From the NCBI GenBank assembly GCA_964016885.1, contig OZ024754.1, forward strand, positions 13,144,001 to 13,208,000: DNA of 64,000 nucleotides. Reading direction: 5' to 3'. This DNA comes from Eledone cirrhosa (Eukaryota). Positions 13,098 to 55,834 of this stretch are shown piece after piece. The stretch's first letter is position 1; every line of letters starts with the position of its first letter. Made by a program: the position numbers and the translations under genes. Under the pieces are notes generated by a model. That model made no database searches, was not told where the DNA came from, and worked only from the letters and a program-made list of their open reading frames with translations.

Positions 13098-13299
13098 AGC
13101 GAAGGAAAAGTGGTAAGTAACCAGGTGGACCATAACGCACCAAAGTACTCAATACTTAGGGTAGTAGAGTGGGTAATAGGAGTAAGTAAGACCCCGACGG
13201 CTGAGCTCAAGCCGTTTCGACGGCTAATTCTGTACTGAAATTACAGAATTAGCCGTCGAAACGGCTTGAGCTCAGCCGTCGGGGTCTTACTTACTCCTA
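13098..13299 (-). mobile_element. Fold-back PLE-end insert, family A
   Basis: Long arm plus short inverted arm, apex ~13235-13241, (TA)n on both sides. Carries the HHR 3' half CCGTC-GAAACGGCT-TGAGCTC-AGCCGT-C-GGGGTC. Confidence 0.8.
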
Positions 13300-13330
13300 A
13301 ATATATATATATATATATATATATATATAT

Positions 13331-13575
13331 CAACTAGAAATTGATTGACATATATATATATATTTAAAATAAACACATTAAACAATCACAGGGGATAAAT
13401 TGTCCCCTGTGATTGTTTCATGTGTTTATTTTAAATATATATATATGTCAATCAATTTCTAGTTGATATAAAATGCTCGGATCTATTCATTGGAATCTTT
13501 GAACTTATTCTACGGTGGATATGGCGCATGTCTCGGACATGACTCCCTTAATTTAATTAAATTTAATTAATTTTG
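13331..13575 (+). mobile_element. Fold-back insert (arms 13331-13395 / 13403-13465 plus unique tail)
   Basis: Near-perfect inverted repeat with 7-nt loop, between (TA)n tracts. Confidence 0.7.
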
Positions 13576-13624
13576 TATATATATATATATATATATATAT
13601 ATATATATATATATATATATATAT

Positions 13625-13717
13625 GAAAAAATGGCGTGCTGCGTGGTTGCAAATGGGTTATATATGAATAAAATTAGTTCTTCATCAGTGATCTTCCGTT
13701 CATCGCTTTAAAGATCA
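13625..13717 (-). mobile_element. Diverged fragment related to the 375-1008 element, with permuted-HHR remnants
   Basis: Minus strand: TGATCTT-TAAAGCGAT-GAACGG-AAGATCA-CTGATGA-AGAAC...TTTTATTCATAT...GCAGCACGCCATT, the latter matching 457-502. Confidence 0.6.
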
Positions 13718-13817
13718 TATATATATATATATATATATATATATATATATATATATATATATATATATATATATATATACGTATATATATACGTATATAT
13801 ATATATATATATATATA

Positions 13818-14078
13818 GGAAAAGTATGACCCCGACGGTAGAGCTCAAGCCGTTTCGACGGCTATTTCTGGACTAGATTTTAGAGGCTCCTGATGAGGCG
13901 GAGGGGATATTCACTTCAGTTTGGAGCCTTTAAAATCTAGTCCAGAAATAGCCGTCAAAACGGCTTGAGCTCTACCGTCGGGGTCATACTTTTTCCTATT
14001 TCCCACTCTACTATCCTAAGTATTGAGTACTCTGGTGCGTTATGGTCCATCTGGTTCCTTACCACAATTCCTTTGTTA
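13818..14078 (+). mobile_element. Fold-back PLE-end insert, family A, retaining the CTGATGA core (13890-13896) in its loop
   Basis: Arms 13818-13890 / 13923-13998. CTGATGA-GGCGG...CCGTC-(G/A)AAACGG...CCGT-C gives the family's HHR with a long stem II insertion. Confidence 0.8.
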
Positions 14079-51449: not shown

Positions 51450-53208
51450 ATAAGATCAACGGGTGGTTAAAAGAGTTCCAAGTATTTTATTATGCGCATT
51501 TCAAAAACAAATATCATCATGGGATGATATATGCGTTCTCATCAGATAAAATAGGGAGACATGATATGAAGCTTAAAAAACACTTGTGAGCAGTGAAGTT
51601 TTAAATCAAGATATGAAAAATAAAGTAAGATGGATATATGAGATAGATTGGGAAAAAATGAGTGGGGGGGGGGGGGGGATATGAAATTGGGAAAAGGTAA
51701 GGAAGAGGAAGAAAGAAAATAAAGGATGGTGGGGAAGGAGTATAAGAAGGAAGGATAAGAGAGGGTGAGAAATGAGTGATAGAGAGAGAGAAATAGCCTT
51801 TACAAGTGAGTCACAGAGAGAAATTAAAAAACCATTGGAAGATAATAGATGATTTAAAATTCTTCCCTATCCAGAACATGTAATCTCTGCCTAGCCGAGA
51901 AATTTACAATTATATCTAATTTTAATCCTATAATAAATAGACGTACCGATTTATTTTCGCTCTTCTTGGATAAATCCCATAGAACATTCTATAAAGTATA
52001 CAGTTAATATCTCAATACCTAATTAGTTTAAAACCTTCTTTTCTCAAAGGCTTTTATATCTTTTACAAATATACCCATCTTTCTACTTTATTTCAGTATA
52101 TTATATTATACAATTTACTCACTCTATGTCGTTGTGATCCCCTATCTTTCTTCTTTTTATCCTTTTTCCTTTCTTCCTTTTTTCTTTTTTAATTTCTAAT
52201 CTTTAATCTGTAACTTTCACTTCCCAATTACTTCTCAATTCATATTATTACTCACTACAGCATTTTCCATTTTCCATTTTTACTCATATTATTGGCCATA
52301 GAAACTATATATTTTTTATTATATAATAATATTACCACTAGAAAATGTTTGTAAACATATATACTTTTTGACGTTAGATATTTTTTCTTCCTTAAATTAT
52401 CTTTTTTCTTCTCTCCTTCCGTACTTGTTTTAAACCTACTATTTACTTTTACATATTACAATACATAAAAACAAACTTAAACCCTAACTAATTCCTCTAA
52501 GTTCATAATTCATTTATTCTTCTCCTGCTTTCACATTATATCCTTAATATCATTAATATTTTTATTTTAATAATACATATTAATAAATTCTCTTTTTTTT
52601 TCGCACATATTGTTAAATCCTTCAATATACAAACCTAAATTAATACTATTCCTAATTCCTTTTTCTTCAATCATAAACATCAACATCCATAAACCTCATT
52701 AACTTTTAATTTCAAAAACTGTTTAAATTATCTATTATCTTCCAATGGTTTTTTAATTTCTCTCTGTGAGACAATGTTGTTCTCACTTGTAAAGGCTATT
52801 CTCTCTCCCTATCACTCATTTCTCCTCCTCTCTTATCCTTCCTTCTTATACTCCTCCCCCTCTATCCTTTATTTTCTTTCTTCCTCTTCCTTAACTTTTC
52901 CTACCCTCATTTTTTCAAAATCTCATATATCCATCTTACTTTATTTTTCATATCTTGATTTAAAACTTCACTGCTCACAAGTGTTTTTTAAGCTTCATAT
53001 CATGTCACCCTATTTTATCTGATGAGAACGCAGATATCATCCCATGATGATATTTGTTTTTGAAATGTGCGCATAATAAAATACTTGGAACTCTTTTAAC
53101 CATCTTTTGTTCTTATATTATTTATACTCCAGTCCTATAAACTGTTAAGTGCTACTTATCCGATATTTGCATTGCTTTATTGTGCTACAATAAAACTCAC
53201 CTCCTACA
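51450..53208. mobile_element. Longer family B element with ~400-bp inverted arms (51450-51850 / 52730-53120); HHRs at 51485-51551 (-) and 53013-53081 (+)
   Basis: Arms are diverged reverse complements; tail 53120-53208 matches 36185-36276. Confidence 0.8.
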
Positions 53209-53309
53209 TATATATATATATACACACACCCACACACACACATATATATATATATATATATATATATATATATATATATATATATATATATATATATATA
53301 TATATGTAA

Positions 53310-53527
53310 AAGGTAAACAGAAATAACAACACAATCGGTACAGTATATGGAAGGGATATATTAGGTTAACGCTTGATATAGCAGGAAGAGGGTCTTAACA
53401 TTTCGGACGCTAGTCCTTCAGCAGAAGAAAGAATGAGAAATAAGATAGATTGTGGGGACGGGCGGGATGGAATTGGAAAAAATGTCTTTAGATAAAAATA
53501 ACAGGTCCATTCATGTTGACATCTCTT
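53310..53527 (-). mobile_element. PLE 3'-end fragment, copy of 1645-1862, HHR decayed (53393-53430)
   Basis: Minus strand TCTT-CTGCTGA-A-GGAC(TAGC)GTCC-GAAATGTT-AAGA. Confidence 0.7.
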
Positions 53528-53720
53528 GCAAAACTGTTGGTGCTGGCATTTTGTGTATGATTTATTTTTTAGAAAAATGGATGATTGAGCGCGTCTACCT
53601 GAAATGAAAAAATAACCGTTTTGTAAAAAGAACTATACCTGAGCACGTGCGTAAGCATGTGTTGGTGTGTGTGTGTGTGTGTGTGTGTGTGTGTGTGTGT
53701 GTGTGTGTGTGTGTGTGTGT

Positions 53721-54095
53721 GTAGTGAAAGATTGAAGAATAACATGGTCGGCTGAACAAAAAGGGTTTTATTTCAAGTATTAACAATTGTTTCATTGATC
53801 AGGGGAGTCTAAAGGCCGCTAATCACTCGAAGTTGCGGTCTTTAGACTCCCCTCATCAATGAAACAATTGTTAATACTTGAAATGAAACCCTTTTTGTAC
53901 AGCTGACCATGTTATTCTTCAATCGTTCACTATTATTACTCCAAGAAAAACCTGCATAGGAATTCTCGTGAACTCGCTACCTAACTATGGAAACCTCATG
54001 TTGAGTCAAACAACGCCGTACGTTAAATCTATCCACAATACAGAGTACTCACAACCTCTAACTGGATTAACTATAAAGATAACTTGTTATCCCAT
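53721..54095 (+). mobile_element. Fold-back insert (arms 53721-53819 / 53835-53932) carrying only an HHR 3' half
   Basis: GAAACAATTGT-T palindromic stem III at ~53861; microsatellite flanks. Confidence 0.7.
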
Positions 54096-55706
54096 ATATA
54101 TATATATATATATATATATATATATATATATATATATATATATATATATGTTTAAGCAGAGAATTTCTGCTTCGGTAATTTACTTTGGAACTTACGCGAG
54201 TCTTTATATCTCTTCTGTTCTGGAAGTTATGTTGATGTCATTTTATTTCATGGCTGTTACTTAACTTTTGATATTATTACAGTTAAATGTACAATAAATA
54301 ACCAATAAATAAATAGATAAAGAAAGAAAGAAAGAAAGAAAGAAAGAAAGAAAGAAAGAAAGAAAGAAAGAAAGAAAGAAAGAAACAAACAAACAATTAT
54401 GACAGTTAAAGCTCTGCAAGCTTCAGACTTTCACGCTACACAAACTACATGTTTGTAAATTTTGGAGATTGTGGTTTCTTTAGTATAAATCTTGAAAACT
54501 GTTCTCAACTTAATCATTCTTTGAGGTATTTTTCTGGCTCTATTAAATAAATGATTGGATGTTTTGCAAGCACTTTATGTATGTTTATTAAATTATTTAA
54601 CAAGAGCTTCGGAACTTTACCACTTTCAAATTGTTCAGTTTGTGTAGCTTTCAAGACACTTCACATGAACAAATTGTCTCCATTTTAATTTACAAAGCTG
54701 TTTGTACCAAAACAAAATACACTATTAAGGGGAGCCAAAAAGAACAACAAAAAAAAAAGAAATGAAAGGATGAAAAAAAAAAATGAATCAAGCAAGGAAA
54801 GAAAGGGCGAGGGTGAGGGACAGAAAGTACACCCCAATTATTTAAGCTGGTAGACACTTGCTATTGCTTGTCACGATGCTTCAGGTTCTGCACTTCAAAG
54901 AACCGTTGTCGATTTTCATGCGACTGATTCTCTAGATTTAGTAAAGTTCTCTTTCATTCCGTGTATGTCGTCTATTTGTAACATTATATCTTTGAACTTT
55001 CATCATTCTTTCCTTTTTATTTTCTATTTGTGGCTTTCCAGTTTAGATTTTGTTAAGGATTCAGACACCTTTTATTTTACTTGTATATGTTTCTCTGTAT
55101 ATTTATTTACCACGTTATTTGCTAAAAATGTTGATGTTTTTGTAGCTATAGTCTTGGCGGAGTACCGCCGTTTCTTTGTAAATATTTTGTATGATTTTAT
55201 CAGGTGAGATTAATGTTTGCATCTCTTTTCCCTAATTCTATAGATAGGCTTGCACTTATTAAGTTGTTATTTTAGCAGTAAGTTTTATTTCTGGAAACGT
55301 TCGTTCATGAGTGTCCCTTCATTGTTTTGTTTTCTATGTTATTAACTGTTTTCACGTTTAGATTATTGTTATGTTAAAAATTTAGGTAGAGAAATTATTT
55401 ATAATAATATATTTTGGCTCTGTACTTAACGTAGAGCTCTCTTTTTCCTGTGTCTACTCCTGTGTCTACAGAATCTCTTGACACTATATATATGTTGCGT
55501 GCGTGTGTGGGTGTGTGTTTGTGTGTGTGTTTGTGTGTGTGTATGTGTGTGTACCGGCTTAGTCATATATATATATATATATATATATATATATACATAT
55601 ATATGACTAAGCAGGTACACACACATAGACACATGTGTGTGTGTGTCTGTGCATGATTTAGTTGCATATATATACATATATATACATATATATATATATA
55701 TATATA

Positions 55707-55834
55707 ACAAAGGAATTGTGGTAAGGAACCAGATAGACCATAACGCACCAGAGTACTCAATACTTAGGGTAGTAGAGTGGGAAATAGCCGTCGAAACGGC
55801 TTGAGCTCTGCCGTCGGGGTCATACTTTTTCCTA
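55707..55834. mobile_element. Family A insert with collapsed hairpin
   Basis: Minus-oriented tail joined at GAAATAG to a plus-oriented short arm. Confidence 0.75.

Follow-up and report, generated by a model that had tools for sequence, protein, structure and literature searches.

We analysed a 64,000-nt window of Eledone cirrhosa DNA (the whole stretch examined) in which an initial annotation had listed 19 inserts, each described as two copies of one end joined in inverted orientation. When each listed insert was aligned to itself, 18 of the 19 showed inverted arms of 21–761 nt with 85–100% identity over the aligned positions. The observation is confirmed; the remaining insert, at 55707, is head-to-head without overlap: it lacks inverted arms, and its tailed arm is cut within the tail and faces a short arm. 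The inserts comprise six members of family A, two of family B, two of family C and nine singletons, or about 12 families, so the earlier wording "many unrelated families" was overstated. The features are as follows, with strand where one applies; +1 denotes the putative start site discussed below, and PLE stands for Penelope-like element.

13098..13300: fold-back of family A (probable Hydra-clade PLE); left tailed arm 13177-13234, right short arm 13242-13299; 58/58 identical; apex within the zone of the putative start; 79-nt tail
13331..13575: singleton fold-back; arms 13331-13398 / 13400-13465; 64/66, tail 110 nt
13818..14076: fold-back of a divergent family A subfamily; arms 13820-13890 / 13923-13993; 69/71; 83-nt tail; each arm continues upstream past +1
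17077..17121: weak case; arms 21 nt, not adjoining (TA)n
17373..17565, + strand: solo tailed arm of family A, absent from the earlier list and used as the coordinate frame; TATA-like box 17398-17405 (-30; one variant base here), putative +1 at 17428, candidate priming sites 17485 (short arm, +58) and 17565 (tail, +138)
17657..17849: old family A fold-back; arms 17744-17790 / 17803-17849; 40/47
18120..18436: family B fold-back; arms 18193-18271 / 18358-18436; 73/79; minimal hammerhead cores 18231-18252 (-) and 18377-18398 (+)
21261..21797: singleton fold-back; arms 21261-21403 / 21645-21797, spacer 241 nt; 140/143
27672..29205, + strand: 5'-truncated Hydra-type PLE whose end is repeated in inverted orientation over 60 nt; open frame 27726-28991 with putative reverse transcriptase (RT) thumb, CxCX5C linker and GIY-YIG, matched by eye to section 11 of Craig 2021 (Pfam: zero matches)
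32726..33041: singleton fold-back; arms 32726-32794 / 32980-33041; 57/62; of a hammerhead core, the inner ends retain just the 5' half
35791..36159: young singleton fold-back; arms 35791-35934 / 35939-36082; 144/144, tail 77 nt
36182..36596: family C fold-back; arms 36279-36437 / 36438-36596; 157/159; both arms reach the putative +1 (36436 on +, 36439 on -), junction over 4 shared bases; type I hammerheads 36325-36371 (-) and 36504-36550 (+), 66 nt 3' of the apex
36615..39909, - strand: near full-length PLE with a 761-nt inverted copy; 759/761; open frame 37191-39194 with RT, CX4CxxC linker and GIY-YIG, Neptune/Nematis-like (RVT_1 E=1.8e-4, under the Pfam cut-off); hammerhead cores 36889-36916 (-) and 39651-39678 (+)
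47451..47641: family A fold-back; arms 47451-47503 / 47509-47561; 52/53, tail 80 nt; apex at the +1 zone
48450..48639: family B insert, exceptional in carrying the tail end at each side; arms 48450-48487 / 48602-48639; 35/38; hammerhead core 48560-48581 (-)
48699..49069: singleton fold-back; arms 48804-48931 / 48942-49069; 127/128; type I hammerheads 48867-48903 (-) and 48970-49006 (+)
49118..49315: family A fold-back; arms 49118-49171 / 49176-49229; 51/54; apex at the +1 zone
51447..53207: long family C fold-back; arms 51447-51858 / 52722-53119, spacer 863 nt; 367/384; each arm runs well upstream of +1; hammerheads 51499-51545 (-) and 53019-53065 (+)
53722..54093: singleton fold-back; arms 53722-53819 / 53835-53932; 92/98; (GT)n instead of (TA)n in the left outer flank
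55706..55836: family A head-to-head insert without duplication; tail arm cut inside the tail plus short arm from +7

Fold-backs at (TA)n and their relation to Penelope-like elements

The outer ends usually run into (TA)n, as had been noted, and such flanks would mask any target-site duplication: at least five TA units lay within 2 nt of an arm end in 14 of the 18 inserts and within 10 nt in two more (32691 and 36626), giving 16 of 18, and no such run adjoined an arm end in 17078 (the weak case with 21-nt arms) or 53721. We scanned for inverted repeats in the window plus eight 100-kb blocks from six chromosomes (864 kb in total; two blocks flank the window). The flanks departed from random: 109 of 193 inverted repeats adjoined (TA)n, versus 414 of 19,300 random intervals (2.1%). 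In 85 of these 109 repeats, one arm carried an extra tail of 25–200 nt, whose length was fixed within each family (80 nt in A, 66 in B, 89-96 in C, 88-91 in D and 68-74 in E). Inserts 48449 and 27671 have the same end at both sides and so no one-sided tail.

An assembly artefact is unlikely to be the source of the fold-backs, because the arms have mutated independently (substitutions at 3.3%), their ends and tails are family-fixed genome-wide, and the short end runs into (TA)n in 784 raw Illumina reads from a different sample. Some apex junctions do recur, and among the Illumina reads and contig pieces listed none bridged an apex with 31 nt on both sides, as sequencing or assembly artefacts or MITE-like units might predict. 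However, junctions are highly varied, the two ends are asymmetric, and longer copies enter a PLE reading frame (L013, L020); we consider both of these origins highly improbable.

The inserts are PLE insertions, as first suggested. An RT plus GIY-YIG reading frame is continuous with family A ends at three loci (L013, L018, L020) and lies within window inserts 27671 and 36626. The structure is that of a pLTR: the end sequence enters the start of the frame directly (L013, L020), and the same sequence follows the frame and 3' UTR (L004, L014). The inverted 5'-side copy with a tail on one arm recurs in 124 of 133 family A pairs, as in the 85 (TA)n-adjoining repeats above. Inverted pLTR copies, one-sided tails and the (TA)n layout have been published for PLEs (PMC3846280, PMC8557442, PMC2377424, in their accessible sections), and the window inserts are this known head-to-head footprint.

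Family A probably belongs to the Hydra clade of EN+ PLEs. This assignment draws on a visual comparison of motifs with those in section 11 of PMC8557442: translations of natural loci contain RWK-like and DKT motifs, a CxCX5C linker and a C-terminal EN. Family A also targets (TA)n, as the Hydra clade does. Canonical hammerheads are readily detected in that clade (Craig et al. 2021, PMC8557442), whereas the last 276 nt of 30 family A loci gave 0 matches; the 5' half of the hammerhead was not found in family A, and a 3'-half-like motif alone is kept. According to the same source, as far as its clade descriptions go, a canonical hammerhead in the Hydra clade pLTR is common, not defining.

Paired arms from one class of RNA

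The 124 regular family A pairs consist of one arm ending at +58 and one ending at +138. The remainder of the 133 close head-to-head pairs included no tail-plus-tail case, four scored as short-plus-short and five with an intermediate arm. The two arms have the properties of cDNAs that were started on the two strands of a cut (TA)n target, in agreement with that part of the initial annotation. Its remark that simple twin priming would invert without duplicating also stands, and such priming does not account for most of the inserts: the segment +1 to +58 is duplicated at 8,949 loci, versus non-duplicated products at 207 and 135 loci in the two 12-nt zones tested.

Snap-back synthesis had been raised as one origin of the arms. 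In 9 of 25 loci, however, the tail-less arm extended beyond the 5' limit of the tailed arm by 10 nt or more (L081 and L088 were set aside in this comparison as alignment artefacts), and L030 and L286 likewise have 5' sequence in the tail-less arm that the tailed arm lacks. Such a tail-less arm cannot have been copied from the tailed strand, and snap-back does not account for most of the inserts. This result bears equally on the self-priming scheme of Arkhipova et al. (2013), in which fold-back priming, possibly on an antisense template, yields the inverted copy and endonuclease resolution yields the tail. That scheme would account for the concordance of the arms described next and for the short palindromes and microhomology at many apexes, together with a small number of short templated inserts and of hairpin-type junctions that recur; however, each arm can hold sequence that the other lacks.

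The arms were proposed to come from two RNAs, which, if drawn independently, should often differ at subfamily-diagnostic sites. Discordance was found at 28 of 730 sites (3.8%), compared with a 3.3% background and 43% after shuffling (314 expected). At least two diagnostic differences occurred in 3 of 124 pairs versus 93 expected; the other 121 had fewer, in a population with at least four common haplotypes. This result speaks against independent drawing of two RNAs. One clean mixed-subfamily pair (L044) and two further mixed pairs (L081, L072) indicate that two templates are used sometimes, and the concordance could also fit two RNAs from one active locus or gene conversion between arms.

Both arms come from the same RNA class. 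Of 30 short arms, 24 ended between -4 and +10, whereas none of the 20 visible partners of arms passing the start by at least 42 nt ended at the start site (p=5e-9).

Apex position and untemplated G

In family A the apex fell within one zone of about 8 nt at 8,949 loci, and family C had a hot spot of 784 loci. Many family A loci were picked by patterns biased towards one subfamily or the hot spot; where blocks were taken without selection, 56 of 77 family A arm alignments ended between -3 and +8, although in divergent subfamilies an alignment end may mark lost similarity to the reference copy rather than the true arm end. Arms measured 39–61 nt in 21 of the 24 family A fold-backs of the 864-kb sample. 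Family B, with 39 loci in the tested zone, had spread arm ends and no clear hot spot. A TATA-like box lies at exactly -30 of the family A hot spot, which itself carries an Inr-like motif. Judged by Inr/TATA consensus, the hot spot is what we take to be the transcription start, and from the DNA junctions and these motifs it looks like one.

An untemplated G preceded +1 in 16 of 88 family A ends joined straight to (TA)n, compared with none of 83 at a control position lying 9-10 nt further in (p=1.6e-5); three loci had it on both arms (L079, L221, L222). Hand counts, from which junctions with a single ambiguous C/G were dropped (21/50 in family C, 7/20 in family D), gave a cap-type base at 28 of 41 non-native arm ends in family C (both arms in 6 loci; p=1e-10; 27 loci with a spacer of at least 2 nt among the first 50 of the 784) and at 12 of 20 in family D (both arms in 2 of 11 loci; p=2e-4). 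Untemplated G at full-length 5' ends has been taken as cap copying in L1 and SVA (PMC4859970, in the part available). We infer that the extra G here was likewise cap-templated, the alternative being terminal addition at an uncapped RNA end.

The pile-up of apexes past promoter-like motifs, together with the extra G, suggests that both target ends likely copy RNA to its capped start. This pattern is at odds with the published self-priming on antisense RNA: on such a template nothing would make synthesis stop at the sense Inr, and the extra G at the sense start may be carried by both arms. We therefore regard self-priming as improbable.

The apex data offer a clue to the insertion mechanism of PLEs. 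We favour, with a probability of roughly 60%, a reading in which both cut (TA)n strands prime on capped sense RNA, run to the cap and are end-joined into head-to-head stubs. The protein, which in the anole element is a predicted dimer, would cut both target strands at (TA)n, and the sense RNA would offer both strands two fixed priming sites, separated by about 60-100 bases. Both primers may sit on one RNA molecule, likely read twice, with the outer cDNA displacing or following the inner one, so that the leader would be duplicated; both cDNAs would run to the capped start, and host end-joining would seal the apex. Long arms past the start site would be copies of read-through transcripts on which priming took place in the downstream pLTR. 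We give even odds to the fuller proposal that integration is an obligate two-ended asymmetric reaction in which a dimer cuts both strands, primes one of them at the short site and the other at the tail site of a single capped RNA, and copies the leader to the cap two times. If this reading is correct, one step would give rise to the one-sided tail and the inverted pLTR as well as to the hundreds of thousands of hairpin stubs that this genome contains, and stub apexes would be a fossil record of where transcription of each family starts.

If both primers sat on one RNA, the outer cDNA should stall where it meets the inner primer, but such stalling was barely seen (207 loci versus 135 at the control zone, the excess with microhomology). 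Its near absence would fit two same-locus RNAs instead held by an asymmetric protein dimer, one subunit per site, and joined at the capped start. Such an arrangement would duplicate the leader without strand displacement, agrees with the predicted protein dimer (PMC11167929, in part) and accommodates the few mixed-subfamily pairs. However, it needs one locus and one RNA class nearly always, given the 121 concordant pairs of 124 and the 20 read-through arms without a start-site partner, and we hold it to be possible but doubtful.

The hammerhead and known systems

The initial annotation had both 3' ends pointing outward where an ORF or hammerhead gives orientation, apexes that in small inserts often lie in or just 5' of the hammerhead, and a ribozyme dimer holding two RNAs together. 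Outward-pointing cores occur in 6 of the 19 inserts (18120, 36185, 36626, 48449, 48703 and 51450), and cores with a palindromic stem III, also pointing outward, in families B, C, D and others. In those six the apex lies about 13-500 nt 5' of the core. Apexes of families B and E cluster within or just 5' of the core. In family A, no CUGAnGA core was present in the six window inserts or 30 loci.

PLE hammerheads have been proposed to act as dimers (PMC4209133), and junctions at the palindromic stem do exist (87 among 23,267 family A arms, 44 among 5,961 in B and 43 among 17,660 in C). However, these amount to about 1% of the hot-spot count in family A (87 versus 8,949) and about 5% in family C (43 versus 784), family A forms more fold-backs than any other family although it has no core, apex-to-core distance differs by family (13-85 nt in stubs, hundreds in long copies), and the arms were not drawn independently. 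In the published portions available, ribozyme mutants had no effect on insertion in vitro in the anole PLE (PMC11167929), and Naiads form such structures without canonical hammerheads (PMC8557442). It is thus very unlikely that palindromic stem III tethers two RNA molecules and places their junction in or close to the ribozyme. On our preferred reading of two primed strands running to a capped start, any hammerhead would ride along as a passenger, and its closeness to the apex follows from its place between start site and priming sites.

Relative to published EN+ PLE insertions (PMC3846280, PMC8557442, PMC2377424, as far as their available sections describe them), the fold-backs share the head-to-head inverted copy, one-arm tail, AT-rich or (TA)n target, internal pLTR promoter, Inr-like motif and junction palindromes. 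They differ in tail length (60-110 nt here, 30-40 published), in junctions that the published antisense self-priming does not fit, and in that most family A copies are minimal stubs ending at the putative start with an extra G, not random 5' truncations.

The closest experimental parallel is PAc, an anole Poseidon element (Frangieh et al. 2024, PMC11167929). In the sections available, its predicted dimer cuts and extends both strands from two adjacent internal RT starts that define the tail, and its ribozyme is dispensable; the same sections leave the inverted copy unexplained and report no strand preference and no target homology of the sites. Here, by contrast, each strand uses one of the sites, and TA follows in the RNA just beyond the short site in families A-D and beyond the tail site in family A.

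L1 twin priming, a mechanism said to come from Ostertag and Kazazian in 2001, inverts without duplication and primes the second strand at variable sites, whereas here both sites are fixed and most products contain the leader twice, those without duplication, such as 55707, being a minority. As in L1, both target ends would prime on one RNA, and the extra G would reflect cap copying (PMC4859970, in part).

Animal non-LTR retrozymes are likewise non-coding, hammerhead-bearing PLE derivatives (Li et al. 2026, bioRxiv 10.64898/2026.07.22.740005, available portion). They are head-to-tail and propagate, whereas the stubs here are head-to-head and stop before the ORF region, and are thus predicted to be dead on arrival.

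Inverted inserts at (TA)n in the window and the genome

When each insert was aligned with itself, the inverted arms claimed in the initial annotation were borne out in 18 of the 19 listed inserts. The sole exception, insert 55707 (inserts are named by their start), has a head-to-head joint with arms that do not overlap. The outer ends were also confirmed to lie at (TA)n: the arm end was within 2 nt of (TA)≥5 in 14 of 18 inserts and within 10 nt in two more. Inserts 17078 and 53721 depart from this pattern, and inserts 48449 and 27671 carry an identical end on either side. The 19 inserts represent about 12 families, with family A accounting for six.

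We scanned an 864-kb sample, comprising the window, which lies at G000:C14:13144001-13208000, and eight 100-kb blocks, for inverted repeats, filtering the counts for low complexity and neighbouring inserts. As the annotation had anticipated, 109 of 193 inverted repeats adjoined (TA)n, compared with 2.1% of matched random intervals, and the claimed one-sided tail was present in 85 of these 109, with a tail length that was constant within each family. Grouping by short end placed the 109 repeats in 49 clusters. The six 100-kb blocks that lie elsewhere than at the window together held 64 inserts in 600 kb; scaled to the 3.0-Gb genome, this density corresponds to roughly 3 x 10^5 such hairpins, which are easily mistaken for MITEs or precursors of miRNAs. 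In an Rfam scan the highest-ranking matches were miRNA hairpins under threshold, and the matches listed (150 of 404) were of hairpin or miRNA type, below the gathering score, with no hammerhead among them.

The arms of one insert differ by independent mutations, the ends are fixed by family across many chromosomes, and 784 raw reads from another sample showed the short-arm end of an insert running into (TA)n; read sets X1-X3 are one sample, possibly the source of the assembly. Contigs break at these repeats, and no apex-bridging piece was found among the read and contig pieces listed. The inserts are real and pervasive and have the already known insertion layout of Penelope-like elements (PLEs). 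An inverted copy, a one-sided tail and a (TA)n preference are described for PLEs in PMC3846280 and PMC8557442, and the layout itself is nothing new.

The 30 best-matching loci identified the family A repeat as the end of an autonomous PLE's terminal repeat (pLTR). At two loci (L004 and L014) it lies downstream of a GIY-YIG open reading frame (ORF) and a long 3' UTR, and at two others (L013 and L020) it leads straight into the ORF start. The RWR, DKT and CxCX5C motifs of the family A ORF match the description of the Hydra clade in PMC8557442. Two PLE frames were recognised in the window:

Window 27726: Hydra-type PLE frame, truncated; no Pfam match
Window 37191: Neptune/Nematis-like PLE frame; sub-threshold Pfam match to reverse transcriptase (RT)

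Other features of the window include a second, degraded 3' fragment (30270-31030) that is related to the Neptune-like element 36626 and has its own hammerhead core, and, upstream of insert 27671, a decayed fragment (26765-27120) that looks coding and belongs to a different type of retroelement. An unlisted hairpin with 88/101 arms (20178-20393) and an unlisted perfect 36-nt palindrome (3765-3800) both lack (TA)n flanks. Clusters of direct and inverted SINE-like copies at 14681-16328 and 56588-58410 presumably resemble octopus SINEs. Elsewhere in the genome, at G000:C17:24167764-24168459, one inversion junction is repeated five times in tandem at a spacing of ~160 nt; this is a stub turned head-to-tail array, retrozyme-like.

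Apex position, the hammerhead and the probable RNA start

The initial annotation proposed that a hammerhead dimer holds two RNAs whose cDNAs, made from both (TA)n target strands, are joined near the ribozyme. The position of the joint between the arms (the apex) did not agree with this. Genome-wide exact counts for family A placed 87 apexes on the palindrome versus 8,949 in an upstream zone (23,267 arms), the hot spot lying ~10-20 nt upstream of GAAA. Family B had only 44 palindrome apexes among 5,961 arms, and in family C (17,660 arms) the apex fell on stem III or the cleavage site 43 times. The core of family C is canonical, and in 784 loci the two arms extend to a single point that lies 66 nt upstream of this core. 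Positions are given below relative to +1, the inferred transcription start (window 17428 for family A and 36436 for family C). In unselected blocks, 56 of 77 family A arm alignments ended at -3 to +8, and in one family A subfamily 75 exact arms extended 30 nt upstream of the +1 point versus 800 exact short-arm ends. Family B showed no start-site hot spot in the zone tested, and its end cluster at -5 to -2 is partly an artefact of the reference subfamily. The ribozyme-dimer mechanism is thus not supported.

Two placements of the apex were rejected: the palindromic stem III or cleavage site, where apexes are rare in families A, B and C, and, for family A, a loop closing an extended stem II of a hammerhead, the 5' half of which was absent from every examined locus. 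Family A has no hammerhead 5' half, only a motif like the 3' half with a palindromic loop. At window 17440-17480 this motif comprises GAAA, a 5-bp stem with the palindromic loop, and GUC, and resembles a type I hammerhead 3' half; more than 23,000 copies have kept it, with no 5' half in cis. The motif may bind a protein, serve the promoter or work in trans as a half-ribozyme. In family E the apex falls 3-8 nt ahead of the hammerhead core (positions 83080 and 83552 of sampled block C14L and 85029 of block C14R), and family B apexes are scattered about the core; these two families may have their start site near the ribozyme, or the ribozyme may play a part. Solo PLE ends with hammerhead cores occur outside the 19 inserts at window 1749, 8746, 17937, 30975, 48043 and 51160; the hammerhead descriptor gave 0-1 calls on shuffled windows.

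The hot-spot point resembles the start of a capped RNA: an A preceded by a pyrimidine, in an Inr-like context, with a TATA-like box at -30 in family A. Among the matches listed, an untemplated G preceded +1 in 16 of 88 family A ends joined directly to (TA)n, whereas a control site inside the element gave 0 of 83 (p=1.6e-5; the first 100 of 871 and of 242 matches, respectively, after manual removal of overlapping duplicates). In a separate tally of the base preceding +1 in family A, among the matches listed (100 of 4,258), there were 34 G and 6 A, or 19 G and 6 A once junctions whose G might have come from the opposite arm were set aside. For family C, the matches listed (50 of 784) comprised 21 ambiguous, 2 blunt or single-T and 27 scorable loci; the 54 arm ends of the latter carried the cap-type base in 28 cases, the native base in 13, A in 10 and T in 3, with the cap-type base on both arms in 6 of these 27 listed loci. 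All 20 loci of one family D subfamily gave 7 ambiguous, 2 single A/T and 11 scorable loci, the last with 12 cap-type, 2 native, 5 A and 3 T ends and the cap-type base on both arms in 2. An untemplated G is an accepted mark of cap copying for L1 and SVA, whose cap-copied 5' ends carry an extra G as do the apexes of families A, C and D here (PMC4859970). In the literature searched, no paper was found that reports either a G of cap type or a clustering of apexes at the start site for the inverted junctions of PLEs, and the passages of PMC13282606 contained nothing on a head-to-head inverted structure.

Origin of the two arms

Family A arms end at one of two fixed sites, +58 (short arm) or +138 (tailed arm). 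Among 133 close head-to-head pairs, many from loci chosen by patterns favouring the hot spot or one subfamily, 124 joined a short to a tailed arm, none joined two tailed arms, 4 joined two short arms (as scored) and 5 had an intermediate arm. TA lies directly 3' of both sites in family A RNA, and of the short-arm site in families B, C and D; TA past the priming site would offer 2-3 nt of pairing to a (TA)n primer.

At 30 loci anchored on the short-arm end, 24 short arms ended at -4 to +10, and in 9 of 25 loci with a measurable tailed arm the short arm reached at least 10 nt further 5'. Because the short arm can exceed the tailed arm on the 5' side and lacks its tail, neither arm templated the other; fold-back copying of the short arm from the tailed arm is excluded because the copied strand would lack the short arm's sequence. 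Likewise, where each of the two arms carries an additional base at the junction, as at L079, L221, L222 and L092, neither arm was copied from the other. Judged from these junction sequences, both arms are cDNAs.

The origin of PLE inverted repeats is described as unresolved in PMC3846280, PMC8557442 and PMC11167929. Arkhipova et al. 2013 attributed junction palindromes to self-priming on an antisense template and called the question open (PMC3846280), and Frangieh et al. 2024 reported two internal RT start sites with both target strands extended, leaving the inversion unexplained (PMC11167929). The both-arm G at one upstream point, the pairing of short with tailed arms, and the matched haplotype and RNA class argue against antisense self-priming. 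What is new here is junction evidence suggesting that both target ends copy sense RNA to its start, which is likely capped, and that one short and one tailed arm come, by their sequences, from the same source.

Independent templates for the two arms, as initially envisaged, were contradicted by concordance at six diagnostic columns of family A: 28 of 730 sites differed, equal to the background rate (174 of 5,198) and far fewer than the shuffled mean of 314, and 3 of 124 arm pairs had at least two differences versus 93 after shuffling. Family A has a second class of ends at -4/-5, and the start-site variants (+1 versus -4/-5) correlate between arms across 2,419 loci, a correlation that is confounded with subfamily and was given no weight. 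For arms that extend 42 nt or more beyond the start, the partner ended at the start in 0 of 14 visible cases (30 loci) and in 0 of 6 new visible cases from a further 30 loci; for the remaining start-passing arms, the partner was not visible or the locus was repeated. The simplest reading is one RNA read twice, which would require strand displacement or RNA re-use. Either is plausible because PLE RT is not known to have RNase H.

The concordance may instead reflect a pair of RNAs transcribed at the same locus, or gene conversion between the arms after insertion. Two findings speak against one RNA read twice. The tailed arm did not clearly stall at the inner priming site, ending there in 207 loci versus 135 in a control zone (399 with a looser inner-zone pattern), and one or more mixed pairs are clean, such as L044 (block C14R, ~37860-38060), with arms from different family A subfamilies. 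One arm of L081 is mosaic; L044 and L081 are rare two-template events or gene conversion. One RNA read twice remains the simplest reading, and the question of PLE inverted repeats becomes directly testable in the existing in vitro system.

Apex fillers at seven loci (L139, L145, L156, L147, L211, L227 and L228) include short templated copies of the nearby arm, A/T runs and (TA)n, a pattern like that of polymerase-theta-type end joining.
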